A stretch of DNA of 48,263 bases from a virus (lineage: Duplodnaviria; Heunggongvirae; Uroviricota; Caudoviricetes), in IMG/VR virus record IMGVR_UViG_2534681708_000006, positions 1-48,263 of that record. One strand, 5' to 3'. The number at the start of each line of letters is the position of its first letter. Position 1 is the first letter of the stretch. This document shows, one piece after another, positions 1,553 to 40,835 of this stretch. Made by a program: the position numbers and the translations under genes. The notes beneath the pieces were generated by a model that saw nothing but the letters and a program-made list of their open reading frames with translations, had not been told where the DNA came from and did no database searches.

Positions 1553-1741
1553 TCACGAGGACTGAAGTTTCTCGCAATTAAAATTTATCAGTTTTACTTT
1601 CTGCTCTCTGGAAACGCCTGCTTCTTTTTTACCTGAGAGCATTTTTTCGCATTCTGATTTGGTTAATTTTGTTTTTGAGTACCTTGTCCAGTTAGTAGGA
1701 GTGCCACCTTCCTTTTCAATAGTGGCAGTAATTTTATACAT
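1553..1741 (-). CDS. Small hypothetical protein (YdaC-like position)
   Basis: ORF-track frame 1553..1810; internal ATG (MYKITAT...) is preceded by GGAGGTG and overlaps the lar stop by 8 nt, so chosen as start. Confidence 0.4.
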   Translation of the reverse strand: MYKITATIEKEGGTPTNWTRYSKTKLTKSECEKMLSGKKEAGVSREQKVKLINFNCEKLQSS

Positions 1742-12136: not shown

Positions 12137-12296
12137 GCCAAATTAATAATCGGAACTTCGTGAAGTGAAAGAGAAAGCATAATCCAAATCTGAATAATTA
12201 AATTCAGCACTGTGAATAAAATAGAGTCCTTAACCTGAGGGATTTCTGCACCCTCAGAACAGCAGGAGGCCGCCCGAAAGGGCGGTGGAGATAATA

Positions 12297-12818
12297 ATGG
12301 AAATAACTAAAGAACGATTATTGGAAATAGCAAATCTTAGTGATAGGGCATTAAGTGATGGGAGAATTATTTCTCCTGATGCTTATGAATCAGTTACAAG
12401 TATAGAAATAATAACGATGGCTAGAATGCTTCTTGCGCGCTTCAAAGAAGAATATAAAAAACAGGTAGATAGCAATGCTAATATATATGATACTTTGGAC
12501 AGTTGGGGAGCCTGGGCTGTAGCTGGAAATAGTTCTATTGATTGGCAGGAAATAGCTGATAAATATAAAAATGTTGTCCCTCATGGTAAAAAATCACGTC
12601 GTCAGTGCAGCAATGATGAAGGGCGAGTTATTGACATTAGTATCCTTAGGTTAGAAAGATATAAGCAACAAGAATATGAGTTAATTGTTGCTCATTTCGT
12701 GATTGGTTTATCTCTTCGTGCTATTGCAAAACAACAAGGATGTTCAGATGGAACAATTCGTAAAAGATTGCAAAAAGCCTTAGGTTTTTTGACTGGATAT
12801 ATAGCAATTACCAGTTAA
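12297..12818 (+). CDS. Q-family antiterminator-like protein (second paralog) with C-terminal sigma-region-4-like HTH
   Basis: 173 aa; WGAW motif and C-terminal LSLRAIAKQQGCSDGTIRKRLQKALGFL resemble my recollection of the 933W/phage-82 Q family; RBS GGTGGAG; stop shares the TTAA tetranucleotide with the convergent gene. Confidence 0.4.
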   Translation: MEITKERLLEIANLSDRALSDGRIISPDAYESVTSIEIITMARMLLARFKEEYKKQVDSNANIYDTLDSWGAWAVAGNSSIDWQEIADKYKNVVPHGKKSRRQCSNDEGRVIDISILRLERYKQQEYELIVAHFVIGLSLRAIAKQQGCSDGTIRKRLQKALGFLTGYIAITS

Positions 12819-13456
12819 GAGTCAGCGGGTTTTTTACCAGTGTAATGGTATAAGGATACTCCCATGTGTCTTACATGATATGGAAGTGCTGTTGCTGGAT
12901 GCTTTGTGATACTCTTAAAGCGGAGGGGAGAGCCTTCCGCTTCAATTTCTGCGTCCGAAACGGTCGTAGAGAAAAATTCTTTCCATTCATTGAATTTTAC
13001 TGCTGATTTGTCAGACTTTATATAAATTAGAATTCCTCCATGATCGTCACGTGACGTACCCGTGCCGTAACGTTCGGTTAGCTGAATCCAGCCATTATGA
13101 ATAGATTTTGGGCCTCTCCATAATTTTGCTTCACCGATCCATTCGAATTTTCCGAATTGATGTTTAACTAATAAATCAACGTGACCGCCATGTTGAGTAT
13201 CATGTTCAACATCATAAAACCTACCTTTCAGGAAATTTTTGATCGACGCTGTTAGCTCGTCCTCTCCCCACTTAGCATCTTGATAGAAGTGTTTGTCATT
13301 TTCTAAATTCTGAATAGCGTCGTCTAAATCTTCATAGAGTTGCTTTACAAAAATATTTTTGTCTGCAGCTAATTTTCTTTGAACCATTCCCCTAAATTCA
13401 GGATCCATTCTAATTAATGATTGAAGGTCTGCAGTACAGATGTTTACATCACTCAT
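12815..13456 (-). CDS. Uncharacterised protein with PD-(D/E)xK-like motif (operon gene 3)
   Basis: 213 aa from ATG with GGAGAG RBS; segment GHVDLLVKHQFGKFEWIGEAK fits the D...ExK nuclease core; overlaps gene 2 by 8 nt. Confidence 0.5.
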   Translation of the reverse strand: MSDVNICTADLQSLIRMDPEFRGMVQRKLAADKNIFVKQLYEDLDDAIQNLENDKHFYQDAKWGEDELTASIKNFLKGRFYDVEHDTQHGGHVDLLVKHQFGKFEWIGEAKLWRGPKSIHNGWIQLTERYGTGTSRDDHGGILIYIKSDKSAVKFNEWKEFFSTTVSDAEIEAEGSPLRFKSITKHPATALPYHVRHMGVSLYHYTGKKPADS

Positions 13457-13877
13457 GCAGACTCTCCAAAAGACTCGAAGGAGTAAAGTATGGATAAAGA
13501 TACTGGCTAAAATTATCAACCAATTCGCCAGTTTCTGGATGGTAAAAACTTCCTGTGTCTAAAGCATAGGAAATAAGATCATCTTCAACTGGTATTGGTT
13601 CTTCCGTTAAATTATCAATGTATTGAAAATGCATATCCAATAGGTGTGCTTTATAGCTAGATAAATAATCAGTTGCTTTTATTAGCAGGATATAGTCATC
13701 TTTCGTATCAGTTAGATAGGTCAAACCATTGATAAGGGTTTTGTATGTAAAGTGATTGATATTTTTAGCATCTTTACTAACCAGAAAAAGAAAAAGATCA
13801 CGACACACACTGCGAACAGGATCATTAAAATCCTGCTCTATTTGCGTGATAATGTCGTGATATATACTCTTTTTCAT
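13449..13877 (-). CDS. Uncharacterised small acidic protein (operon gene 2)
   Basis: 142 aa; ATG overlaps the stop of gene 1 (ATGA). Confidence 0.5.
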   Translation of the reverse strand: MKKSIYHDIITQIEQDFNDPVRSVCRDLFLFLVSKDAKNINHFTYKTLINGLTYLTDTKDDYILLIKATDYLSSYKAHLLDMHFQYIDNLTEEPIPVEDDLISYALDTGSFYHPETGELVDNFSQYLYPYFTPSSLLESLHE

Positions 13878-14965
13878 TTATGGCCTGATGATCTCGCTCT
13901 TCTTTTCTCTTCACAGGACTTAACAGAATCCAATATTTTTTCAACAATAAATATAATCGAATCAATGTTGTTACAGTTCTTCGCAATTGCTTCATGCAAC
14001 CTAATTCTAGGATTATCAAGCATTGTCCTTTTCCCTGGTAATATTAACTCTACTGATAAAATATGTGAAGAACTTTGTGGTAAATCCCAAATTTTTCCCA
14101 ACTTAAACTTTGTCAATATTGGGCTTGCGGACTCTCCACTATGATGGTAAACATCTTGACGCAAACACTTTTGACTTGGTTTGAGTTTTAAAGAACTTGT
14201 ATTGCCATCTGAGGTGATAAAAGATACATGAGAAATTCTGCCATCTACTTTTTCGTAAAGATCTTGTATTGAACCAAATAACTCAAGGGGATTGTTTAAA
14301 ATAACGCCAGCTTCTTTTTTTATAAATTTAGCCACAAGGTATTGTTGAGGCTGTGATTCACTTCTTGGAAGGATAGATAAATCAATCGTAAGAATTAATA
14401 TTTTTTCTGCAGGCATTAGCATGATGGTATTAAAGCATTGCGTGACTTGGCGTGTTTTGCATTTTATTTCTCCACCATTAGCACGTAATTCCATACCCGC
14501 ATCGCTAAGATGTGTTGGGTCAAGCTCTATCACTTCAGTGTAATACGCTTTGGATAAAAAAACAGCAGTGTCAATTTGTTTATCACGAATGATATCTTGA
14601 CGTAGTTCAGCAAAATGCAGCTCAGTATCAGCAACTAACAGCTCCTCTCTGGATAAAGGAGTTGGGTATTTTTCTGAGAAGGGGCTATTGTCCTTTTTCT
14701 GATTTGTGAAAATTGTTTGTAATTTTGCTACGTCTTCATCGGTGATTCTATAAATAGAAAGTAATCGATTCCCGCTAAAAATTAAACCTTTCCAGAAATC
14801 GTCGATTCTATCTTTTAGGTCGGGATTATGCTGAACTACACTATTTACACGTTCAATAAAAAGGGGTAATCCTTGGGCCGTTACACCCAGTGATGAACCA
14901 AGAAGCTTACGGGTGTTGCGCCAGCCAAAGCGTGAATTGATGTTTTTTACTGTTTGCTCAAGCAT
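13874..14965 (-). CDS. Uncharacterised protein (operon gene 1, 363 aa)
   Basis: ORF 13874..14971; start taken at ATG 14965 preceded by AAGGAAG; no Walker or other named motif found. Confidence 0.5.
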   Translation of the reverse strand: MLEQTVKNINSRFGWRNTRKLLGSSLGVTAQGLPLFIERVNSVVQHNPDLKDRIDDFWKGLIFSGNRLLSIYRITDEDVAKLQTIFTNQKKDNSPFSEKYPTPLSREELLVADTELHFAELRQDIIRDKQIDTAVFLSKAYYTEVIELDPTHLSDAGMELRANGGEIKCKTRQVTQCFNTIMLMPAEKILILTIDLSILPRSESQPQQYLVAKFIKKEAGVILNNPLELFGSIQDLYEKVDGRISHVSFITSDGNTSSLKLKPSQKCLRQDVYHHSGESASPILTKFKLGKIWDLPQSSSHILSVELILPGKRTMLDNPRIRLHEAIAKNCNNIDSIIFIVEKILDSVKSCEEKRRARSSGHK

Positions 14966-15252
14966 TAACACTTCCTTAATTTTTCCTTAACAATTTAGGG
15001 TGCTAAACTTCTTTGCGCAGTTTACACAAAAAAATAGTGCGTACGCAAAAACTATCTAACATGATGAGCTTTAACCGGGAAATTTGTATATGTTGTGAGC
15101 ATAAAGTTGGCTGAGAAATCTAAAACGGGTCGAATGACTACGGGTGCTTGAGGCTATCTGCCTCGGGCATGCCACCAAAGGCCGATAGAGAAAAGTCCCA
15201 GTTAACATTACGCGTCCTGCAAGACGCTTAACATTAATCTGAGGATATATCT

Positions 15253-15312
15253 ATGACTTGCACCTATAGGTTACCTCTTACGTGCCGAAAGGCAAGGAGA
15301 AGCGGGCTATGA
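15253..15312 (+). CDS. mok-like leader ORF (19 codons) translationally coupled to hok
   Basis: ATG with GAGGA RBS; its TGA stop overlaps the hok ATG (ATGA). Confidence 0.3.
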   Translation: MTCTYRLPLTCRKARRSGL

Positions 15313-15464
15313 AGCAGCAAAAGGCGATGTTACTCGCTCTAATCGTCATCTGTTTAACCGTCATAGTGACGGTACTGGTAACGTGGAAAGACCTCTGCGA
15401 GGTGCGAATCCGAACCGGTCAGACGGAGATCGCTGTCTTCACAGTTTACGAACCTGAGGAGTAA
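15309..15464 (+). CDS. hok: Hok/Gef-family type I toxin (small membrane host-killing peptide)
   Basis: 51-aa translation MKQQKAMLLALIVICLTVIVTVLVTWKDLCEVRIRTGQTEIAVFTVYEPEE, near-identical to my recollection of HokD/HokC; AAGGAG RBS. Confidence 0.85.
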   Translation: MKQQKAMLLALIVICLTVIVTVLVTWKDLCEVRIRTGQTEIAVFTVYEPEE

Positions 15465-15740
15465 GAGACCCGGCGGGGAGAAATCCCCGTCACCTCTGAT
15501 GTGTCAGGCATCCTCAATGCACCCGATTTTGCCCCTCTCGATATTTTGTTTTTAATTAATAAATATTATTAAACAGAATGTACAATGTCATAATGTTCTC
15601 ATTGTTGTTTTTTATATCACGCGCAGTTTACCTTGTATTCTTAATTTATATGTTTTATATATTGTTGTGTTTTCTTGGTTATTGCCTCATGTGAAATATT
15701 AATTAGAATCCTTTGGGCTTGATTTGCGCGCAGGGAGAAG

Positions 15741-16624: not shown

Positions 16625-16914
16625 TGGTGGACTTACGTAAAGCGGCGCGGGGGCAGATGTGCACCGTCAGAATTCCTGGCTACTGCAATCACGATCCGGA
16701 AACGTCTGTGCTGGCGCATTACCGACTGGCGGGAACGTGCGGAACAGCGATAAAGCCACACGATATGCAGGCAGCGATTGCTTGTAGCTCGTGCCATGAT
16801 TTAATCGACGGGCGGGTAAAAAACAGCGATTACACCAAAGAAGAATTACGCCTGATGCATGCAGAAGGTGTTTTTCGCACACAAGAAATCTGGAGAAAGG
16901 AGGGATATTTATGA
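16624..16914 (+). CDS. YbcO-like DUF1364 protein (Cys/His-rich, putative nuclease)
   Basis: 96 aa; CTVRIPGYC...CSSCHDLIDGR resembles recalled DLP12 YbcO. Confidence 0.55.
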   Translation: MVDLRKAARGQMCTVRIPGYCNHDPETSVLAHYRLAGTCGTAIKPHDMQAAIACSSCHDLIDGRVKNSDYTKEELRLMHAEGVFRTQEIWRKEGYL

Positions 16915-17453
16915 TTTACCCAACGCATACAGGAAAAAGCGGAGAACACCTTCGTCTCAACACGCTGGAAAGTGTCTGGATTCAGGGAAAACTACGTATG
17001 TGGGGGCGCTGGTCGTATATTGGCGGCGGTAGATCAGGGAATATGTTCAATCAGTTGCTGGCGTCAAAAAAGTTGACGAAAACAGCCATCAATGAAGCCC
17101 TGTTTAGAATGAAAAAAGCGGGAATAGAGAAACCTGAACTGGAATCATTTTTGCGAGAAATTATCAATGGCAAGCAAAAGAGCTGGCTGGTGCATTGTAC
17201 TGATGCCGAGGCGCTATGCATTGATCGGGTGATTAGTGAAGTGCTGGCAGATCATCCGGGGTTGATTTGTATCCTCCAGCAGCGGTATGAAGGACGGGGG
17301 ATGACTAAGCGCAAAATGGCTGAATTGCTGAATGATGCACACCCAGAGTGGTGTTTTAGCACATGTGAAAAGCGAATTGCTAATTGGTTGGCTGTTGCTG
17401 AGTATGCGCTATACATTCCCATGCGAGAATCACTTGCTCAAAAAATAGCTTGA
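16911..17453 (+). CDS. Late-gene antitermination protein Q (Q-family) at canonical position
   Basis: 180 aa; AGGAGG RBS; WGRW motif and C-terminal ...CFSTCEKRIANWLAVAE pattern parallel the other Q-like ORF; immediately upstream of a tR-prime-like terminator and the toxin/lysis genes. Confidence 0.55.
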   Translation: MIYPTHTGKSGEHLRLNTLESVWIQGKLRMWGRWSYIGGGRSGNMFNQLLASKKLTKTAINEALFRMKKAGIEKPELESFLREIINGKQKSWLVHCTDAEALCIDRVISEVLADHPGLICILQQRYEGRGMTKRKMAELLNDAHPEWCFSTCEKRIANWLAVAEYALYIPMRESLAQKIA

Positions 17454-40498: not shown

Positions 40499-40835
40499 AG
40501 TAACCTCTTTTGGCTTTTTTCGAATTGCCACTAACGTAGTGGCGCCGGGAGGTTCGAAACGGCCCAAAAGATACCGCGGACTTATTCCCCTTTCGGGTGT
40601 TGTATTCGTCGCCCTCCCGACATTGATCGGGGTTGTGATCGCACATATTGCCATCACAAAAAAAAGGCATAAAAAAACCAACACATTGTAGGGTGCTGGG
40701 TAATCAGCTTTTGGGGGAGGTTTCGACGCCTCATGCGTCCAATCATACTCAACTGGGCGCGGTTGTAAAGTATGAACTTGAACAGACATTAAGAATGGGT
40801 AAAATTTGTTCTCCTGTTTTATAAGGAGATTAAGG

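Follow-up and report, generated by a model that had tools for sequence, protein, structure and literature searches.

Positions 15141-15525 of the Caudoviricetes record IMGVR_UViG_2534681708_000006 from IMG/VR, whose full 48,263 nucleotides (nt) are referred to here as the window, very probably hold a hok/mok/sok type I toxin-antitoxin module of the hokD/hokW clade, carried in the nin region of a Rac-type prophage (probability about 0.9). This is a textbook system, and the kind of locus, its clade and nearly its sequence are already known. Judged from its sequence, the copy in the window is probably transcriptionally attenuated or inert. The initial annotation of this DNA had read the region as a hok/sok-type type I locus, a reading that homology and covariation now support, and the proper annotation label for the region is hok/mok/sok of the hokD/hokW type.

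Membership in the family is evident from the toxin gene, from the mRNA leader and from the abundance of relatives in E. coli. The locus and its toxin gene are placed as follows.

15141-15525, plus strand (that of the hok mRNA): hok/mok/sok locus in a Rac-type lambdoid prophage
15294-15464, plus strand: hok, with the Shine-Dalgarno (SD) sequence AAGGAG at 15294-15299 and the coding sequence (CDS) at 15309-15464, 51 amino acids
15394-15398, plus strand: dcb-like box UCUGC inside hok, which pairs with ucb in the consensus fold (RNAalifold columns 290-294)

The hok open reading frame (ORF) runs from the ATG at 15309 to the TAA at 15462-15464 and encodes MKQQKAMLLALIVICLTVIVTVLVTWKDLCEVRIRTGQTEIAVFTVYEPEE. 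This product matches Pfam HOK_GEF (PF01848; E=3.3e-20, 71.8 bits, cutoff 22) and PHROG 251, 'MokW-like host killing' (8.5e-30), which confirms the 51-residue Hok/Gef-family peptide proposed at the outset; its match to the NCBIfam Hok family falls under the cutoff of that model, and PADLOC contains no model matching Hok or the adjacent ORFs. The conserved Cys motif of the family (...LCE...) is retained as DLCEV. Upstream of the gene, the Rfam 'sok' model (RF01794) gives a full-length match to 15142-15314 with 91.5 bits (gathering score 59), and because this match lies on the plus strand, it is effectively the leader of the hok mRNA that the model describes. Furthermore, a 461-bp query (15100-15560) has 10,585 matching places, spread over 4,709 of the 5,426 complete E. 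coli genomes searched, with a median of two and a maximum of nine places per genome, mostly annotated hokD or Hok/Gef. One RefSeq E. coli genome carries the query at 100% identity in a locus annotated Hok/Gef; in that record the Hok CDS alone is annotated here, with neither a mok nor a Sok feature.

The second line of evidence is a long-range pairing between the two ends of the hok mRNA. Loci of Hok relatives were fetched from one genome per species (79 in all, cited by L numbers where needed), and the 55 non-identical mRNAs in which a 5ʹ element could be recognised were kept. These span Escherichia, Kluyvera, Photorhabdus, Pantoea, Erwinia, Sodalis, Klebsiella, R1-type plasmids and others, and their MAFFT alignment (A4) was the input to RNAalifold. 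The mRNA elements, named after PMC9841398, are the following.

15142-15525, plus strand: full-length hok (mok-hok) mRNA, about 383 nt, its 5ʹ end placed by homology and its 3ʹ end approximate
15142-15153, plus strand: tac (translational activator), GGGUGCUUGAGG, pairing with fbi in the full-length mRNA
15150-15164, plus strand: 5ʹ local hairpin GAGGC-UAUCU-GCCUC, corresponding to the metastable/tac hairpin of the plasmid R1 model
15180-15201, plus strand: ucb/anti-SD region, GGCCGAUAGAGAAAAGUCCCAG, with changes at 15183 (A to C) and 15196 (C to T)
15472-15491, plus strand: GC-rich hairpin GGCGGGGA-GAAA-UCCCCGUC, just 3ʹ of the hok stop codon
15512-15524, plus strand: fbi (fold-back inhibition), CCUCAAUGCACCC, the complement of tac with a bulged U at 15518

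The end complementarity with one bulge that had been noted initially is present: CGGGTGCTTGAGG (15141-15153) is complementary to CCTCAATGCACCCG (15512-15525) with a single bulged T at 15518, tac lying 167 nt ahead of the hok ATG and fbi beginning 47-48 nt past the hok stop. Pairing was measured by duplexing a 16-nt tac probe with segments of 150 nt, including controls from the same locus; long flanks gave spurious long duplexes. Against the 150 nt past the hok stop, the 16-nt 5ʹ element of the window pairs with -21.5 kcal/mol, while the control segments of the window reach -19.9 at best and -13.9 on average. Moreover, the minimum free energy (MFE) fold of 15142-15524 joins both ends, at -143.1 kcal/mol (z = -4.46; 0 of 100 shuffles as good).

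This pairing is real and is conserved in homologues, where it keeps a fixed position and shows compensatory changes. In all 55 loci, the 5ʹ element finds its best partner 40-57 nt past the hok stop, and the mean energy of the cognate tac/fbi pairs is -21.1 kcal/mol, compared with -14.2 for 675 control segments. Degenerate exceptions are the K-12-type relBE-hokD loci without a leader (L010, L015), in which the search for the 5ʹ element found no tac, a hokC disrupted by IS186 (L024) and a mutated copy (L009). Among 36 distinct tac/fbi combinations, tac position 4 is paired as U:A in 18, C:G in 15 and U:G in 2, position 12 as G:C in 23, A:U in 11 and G:U in 1, and positions 7 to 11 show further pair exchanges. 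RNAalifold on A4 independently closes the ends, joining columns 2-6 with 439-443. The 12-bp tac/fbi helix is 88.5% paired in register and at most 57% paired when the partner is slid by one to three columns, and its covariation score (0.216, compared with 0.156 in shuffles) is reached by 0 of 500 shuffles. MAFFT mis-registers the distal half of the helix in loci lacking the bulge, so the per-pair table taken from the alignment understates pairing at columns 8, 10 and 12, and the per-sequence duplex table is the better count. It is extremely unlikely that the short ORFs and complementary ends resemble such a locus by chance and have no RNA biology of their own, given that the Rfam, Pfam and PHROG matches lie far over threshold, that homologous places number in the thousands in E. 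coli genomes and that covariation backs the long-range helix.

The consensus fold additionally recovers three more covarying helices. In the 5ʹ local hairpin, columns 9-13 pair with 21-25, and pair 12/22 is GC in 20 loci, AU in 17 and GU in 16; this hairpin also forms in folds of 3ʹ-truncated RNA. A helix resembling ucb-dcb joins columns 61-66 with 290-294, corresponding to approximately 15181-15186 and 15394-15398 of the window, and the GC hairpin after the stop codon pairs columns 373-380 with 392-399, likewise with covariation.

A separate feature of the hok coding region concerns its Tyr47 codon, which is contained in TACGAA (15447-15452, plus strand), a hexamer invariant in 55 of 55 loci. 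A short stem with covariation encloses it (A4 columns 338-340 with 350-355), and pair 338/355 of this stem is CG in 27 loci, UA in 15 and UG in 12. A preprint (bioRxiv 10.1101/2025.08.07.668861) summarises A-to-I editing by TadA, reported for hok mRNAs at a tRNA-Arg-like site and changing Tyr to Cys. By its sequence and stem, the Tyr47 TACGAA looks like such a hok mRNA editing site.

Between tac and hok lies the mok leader, whose arrangement in the window is unusual.

15241-15312, plus strand: mok leader, with SD GAGG at 15241-15244 and a 19-codon ORF from the ATG at 15253 to the TGA at 15310-15312

The ORF encodes MTCTYRLPLTCRKARRSGL, GAGG stands 8 nt upstream of its ATG, and its TGA overlaps the hok ATG as ATGA. 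The initial annotation had taken this for the coupling arrangement described for mok/hok. The ribosome-binding site and the overlap with the hok start are indeed there, but the arrangement is not the one described and derives from a deletion. Relative to all close relatives, the window is without one G between 15273 and 15274, and it is because of this 1-nt deletion that the mok TGA overlaps the hok ATG and that mok is frameshifted with respect to mokW of phage 933W. The distance from the mok ATG to the hok ATG is consequently 56 nt in the window and not 57. Since every hok starts with ATGA, a mok in the -56 phase terminates on the hok start codon.

An ATG occupies the mok start position in 51 of the 55 loci and is absent in four. 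Its distance to the hok ATG is -57 in 30 loci, -58 in 15, -56 in 5 and -60 in 1, such that mok starts occur in all three reading phases. The 19-codon, -56 form is also found in four further loci (L017, L022, L023 and L066), which represent three clades and have their indels at differing sites. The annotated mok genes of 933W, the Rac-SA53 prophage and K-12 hokC specify about 68-71 amino acids and share their stop codon with hok, so mok is there an in-frame N-terminal extension of the toxin; in an R1-type locus (L075), mok is read in the +1 frame for 70 codons and covers almost the whole of hok. Saturation mutagenesis of R1 demonstrated that mok translation is required up to the hok initiation region and not past the hok start (PMC9841398). 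On this basis the 19-codon leader should couple, although it is a frameshift-derived variant that departs from the classical mok arrangement.

A Sok antisense RNA had been expected opposite the leader at roughly 15190-15270, and homology to sokW of 933W places a candidate there together with a putative promoter and terminator hairpin.

15261 to 15191, minus strand: predicted Sok antisense RNA, 71 nt, mapped from the annotated 933W sokW (L001, 1564-1634) through alignment A1
15268-15295, minus strand: sok promoter, with -35 TTGCCT (15295-15290), a 16-nt spacer and -10 TAACCT (15273-15268)

In the predicted RNA, 16 nt at the 5ʹ end would stay single-stranded, followed by a long hairpin (15196-15245) and a terminal UUUU, with a folding energy of -21.6 kcal/mol (z = -3.18). 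Six nucleotides separate the sok -10 box from the start G at 15261, and the promoter bases -11A (15272) and -7T (15268) are invariant in 55 of 55 loci. The promoter spacing is one base shorter than in 54 of 54 other loci (16 compared with 17). In the 933W system, northern blotting revealed the 71-nt sokW RNA, which neutralises HokW in a manner dependent on RNase III and Hfq, and Takada et al. silenced sokW by mutating the matching -10 box with primers YO-421/422 (PMC8621323).

The leader, otherwise conserved, varies most over the stretch that holds the start of mok and the unpaired 5ʹ tail of Sok (15245-15268; A4 columns 134-160). Such variability would fit insulation among the several hok/sok paralogues of one genome.

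The way in which an intact module of this type would work can be drawn from the R1 hok/sok and Sp5 hokW/sokW systems, on whose homology each step is inferred. A stable, folded mRNA of about 383 nt would begin near 15142 and be locked by the pairing of tac (15142-15153) with fbi (15512-15524), which would sequester the mok ribosome-binding site (15241-15255). Slow 3ʹ trimming would then take off fbi and allow the 5ʹ end to refold and mok to be translated. Ribosomes reading the 19 codons to the UGA over the hok AUG would open the hok SD hairpin and permit coupled translation of hok, and the 51-residue Hok would enter the inner membrane and kill or lyse the cell. A short-lived 71-nt Sok, transcribed from TTGCCT-N16-TAACCT, would pair with the mok start region and direct the mRNA to decay by RNase III. 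Toxin would therefore appear only once Sok was no longer replenished, for example after loss of the element, shut-off of transcription by an infecting phage or prophage induction. In Sp5, HokW is toxic, and after induction the hokW/sokW locus brings lysis forward and doubles the release of phage (PMC8621323).

The hok promoter of the window copy, which the initial annotation left out, has a C at -11 (15131).

15107-15135, plus strand: hok mRNA promoter, with -35 TTGGCT (15107-15112), a 17-nt spacer and -10 TCGAAT (15130-15135)

The hok -10 box stands 6 nt from +1 (15142), and the position of the promoter relative to the mRNA start is conserved in the 55 loci. Position -11 is A in 54 of 54 other loci, and the box in the window departs from the TANNNT form of the functional constitutive hok -10 box. 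The upstream sequence of enteropathogenic E. coli (EPEC) E2348/69 is identical save for TAGAAT in this box and one further change at -2. In R1, A-11C and A-11G were recovered as mutations abolishing Hok toxicity (PMC9841398). With C at an otherwise invariant position, the window copy may be silent; the mismatch bears on the activity of this copy and not on its membership of the family by descent.

Several other bases set the allele apart. Position 15196 in the anti-SD region is T and not C as in 54 of 54 other loci, C for A at 15183 creates the sole C.U mismatch among the loci at the ucb/dcb pair 64/292, and TGG at 15384-15386 replaces with Trp an Arg found at residue 26 in all other Hok ORFs recovered (R26W). 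The allele is rare, being present in 5 of 5,426 complete E. coli genomes, and in four of these five an insertion sequence (IS) of the IS421/IS186 family separates fbi from hok. In STEC367 (L086, from about 806 onward), this element lies in the GC hairpin after GGCGGGGAGAAATCCC and splits fbi from hok, at the same junction as IS186 beside hokC in a K-12-like genome (L024); shortened matches in STEC306-308 indicate the same insertion there.

These observations bear on two rival views of the copy. One regards it as a decaying remnant with a dead toxin promoter, the locus being a Sok-producing or inert relic comparable to the K-12 chromosomal hok loci inactivated by IS elements or mutation, and its odds are put slightly better than even. 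It draws on changes unique to the window in four functional elements (the hok -10 box, the sok spacer, ucb and Hok R26), on the rarity of the allele and its frequent IS insertions, and on the recovery of leaderless K-12-type hokD and IS186-disrupted hokC in the same set of loci. Yet both ORFs are uninterrupted, tac/fbi pairing is perfect in the window, the changes in the Sok terminator stem (15196, 15245) still permit a stable hairpin, and a few point changes are no proof of lost function.

According to the other view, the copy is a fully active toxin-antitoxin pair in which the allelic changes are neutral or compensate each other, and this appears less likely than not. An active copy would hasten lysis when the prophage is induced, as hokW/sokW does in Sp5, or serve in stabilisation or abortive infection, or both. 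All RNA elements and both ORFs are intact, the 56-nt mok phase has arisen in the four other loci named above, and by the R1 data termination at the hok start should couple. The 16-bp spacer of the sok promoter also falls in the working range of sigma-70 promoters. Furthermore, the window retains fbi, while most genomes with the allele carry an IS in the 3ʹ hairpin. Against full activity stand the C at hok -11, unique among the 55 loci and abolishing toxicity at its R1 counterpart, the loss of an invariant Arg in the toxin, the C.U mismatch in the ucb/dcb helix and the weakened anti-SD pairing.

A third, tentative proposal, considered unlikely, sees a naturally disarmed allele. One deletion would have produced both the minimal mok and the shorter sok spacer, and a separate A-to-C change at -11 would have lowered toxin transcription, possibly compensating for a weaker Sok. 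If true, this would, together with a fixed mok start in three phases, provide comparative evidence that selection acts only on translation to the hok start, and also that the toxin and antitoxin promoters co-evolve in step. More generally, the comparative value of these loci lies in the three interchangeable mok phases and in tac/fbi covariation across genera, and the allele shows point-mutational and IS-mediated decay of the sort long reported for chromosomal hok loci.

Several points count against the account of an attenuated hok/mok/sok module favoured here. For the C at -11, the expected effect is an extrapolation from R1 and from what is generally known of sigma-70 promoters, and read-through from upstream or a prophage early transcript could still supply hok mRNA. 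A consensus promoter scan missed both the hok and the sok promoter, so both are placed by homology. MFE and partition-function folds of 3ʹ-truncated mRNAs gave no opening of the mok initiation region, for which reason the refolding step rests on the R1 model only. Finally, a terminator scan found no canonical terminator past fbi in the window, so that the 3ʹ end of the hok mRNA is placed only approximately.

The sequence just beyond fbi differs among relatives. A GC-rich terminator is missing after fbi (15525-15560 in the window) from the window, Rac-SA53 and 933W, while E2348/69 and the K-12-type hokD loci have CCCGCTTCGGCGGGTTTTT directly past fbi, in E2348/69 as a canonical terminator. Similarity from locus to locus ends right after GCACCCG, marking the boundary of the module.

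The surrounding DNA is an E. coli Rac-type prophage inserted at ttcA, with intR, xisR, ralR, recT and recE in its gene content. The hok slot is the nin region, upstream of a Q-like antiterminator, with a 365-residue minus-strand ORF on one side and rem-like, DUF1367, DUF1364 and Q-like genes on the other. Identity of the window with the prophage of CFIAFB20190172 was considered and rejected, as BLAST revealed a mosaic relative with blocks of 88.6-98.7% identity and some segments unshared. On the minus strand at 12815-14971, three successive ORFs of unknown function (phrog_9664, phrog_11490 and phrog_12777) fill the space from a Q-like/sigma-like gene (12285-12818) to hok, opposite in direction to the surrounding early operon. 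The 365-residue ORF has no Pfam match, and these three ORFs have no convincing PADLOC match.

Other elements of the prophage are recognisable elsewhere in the window. Beside ralR, the RalA small RNA (sRNA) is matched at full length at 1557-1735 (plus strand; RF02694, 218.7 bits, gathering score 170), and the hok locus is thus a second type I toxin-antitoxin pair besides ralR/RalA in a toxin-carrying Rac-like prophage. Immediately downstream of the Q-like gene (16911-17453), two ORFs occupy 17841-19059 (plus strand). The first resembles the pertussis-type ADP-ribosyltransferase ArtA (257.7 bits, under the equivalog cutoff of 457) and the second the AB5 binding subunit PltB (154 bits, cutoff 40), an arrangement similar to that of the annotated Rac-SA53 toxin cassette. 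Among the structural genes of the prophage, the Rfam model sRNA-Xcc1 matches 40536-40621 (minus strand; 72.5 bits, gathering score 53).

Alignment with known relatives, which the initial annotation had proposed, assigns the locus to the hokD/hokW clade. An experimentally studied member of this clade is hokW/mokW/sokW of 933W/Sp5 (Sakai; VT2-Sakai; AF125520; Takada et al. 2021, PMC8621323), with 89.5% nucleotide identity to the window over the module. The two have in common a 51-residue Hok, tac, fbi (differing in the bulged base alone), the Sok hairpin, the sok -35 and -10 boxes and carriage by a lambdoid prophage. They differ in mok, as mokW is a 70-residue in-frame extension ending at the hok stop and the deletion in the window reduces mok to 19 codons and the sok spacer from 17 to 16. 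Additionally, 933W has TAGAAT as hok -10 box and Arg at Hok residue 26 where the window has TCGAAT and Trp, and its locus is located beside a very large ORF near the end of the record, whereas that of the window is in the nin region.

Closer still in sequence and location are mok/hok of Rac-SA53 (KU052037), 92% identical, and the 'hokD' locus of EPEC E2348/69, 91.3-91.7% identical. Both share the slot of the window between the 365-residue minus-strand ORF and rem/DUF1367/DUF1364/Q, and Rac-SA53 also shares the sequence downstream of fbi. Unlike the window, both have A at -11, Hok R26 and the extra G, which gives an in-frame 70-residue mok and a 17-bp sok spacer.

Of the K-12 peptides, HokD (relF) is 90% identical to the window Hok and HokC (gef) 74%. 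The hokC locus has the same layout as the window, with mokC and sokC annotated, and carries IS186 20 bp past the stop. K-12 hokD directly follows relBE and is without tac, mok and sok, whereas the window keeps the complete regulatory region.

The more distant hok/sok (parB) is carried by plasmid R1, for which it mediates post-segregational killing. Its Hok is only about 35% identical to that of the window, its mok has 70 codons in the +1 frame and a terminator follows fbi. Nevertheless, alignment A4 (R1-type L075) matches its promoter, tac, metastable hairpin, ucb, Sok target, mok, hok, dcb, GC hairpin and fbi to those of the window, and the spacing of the mok start (56-58 nt) and the layout of the sok promoter are alike. 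The ends of the R1 mRNA, GGCGCUU... and ...GAAGCGCC, are a covarying version of the same helix that tac and fbi form in the window.

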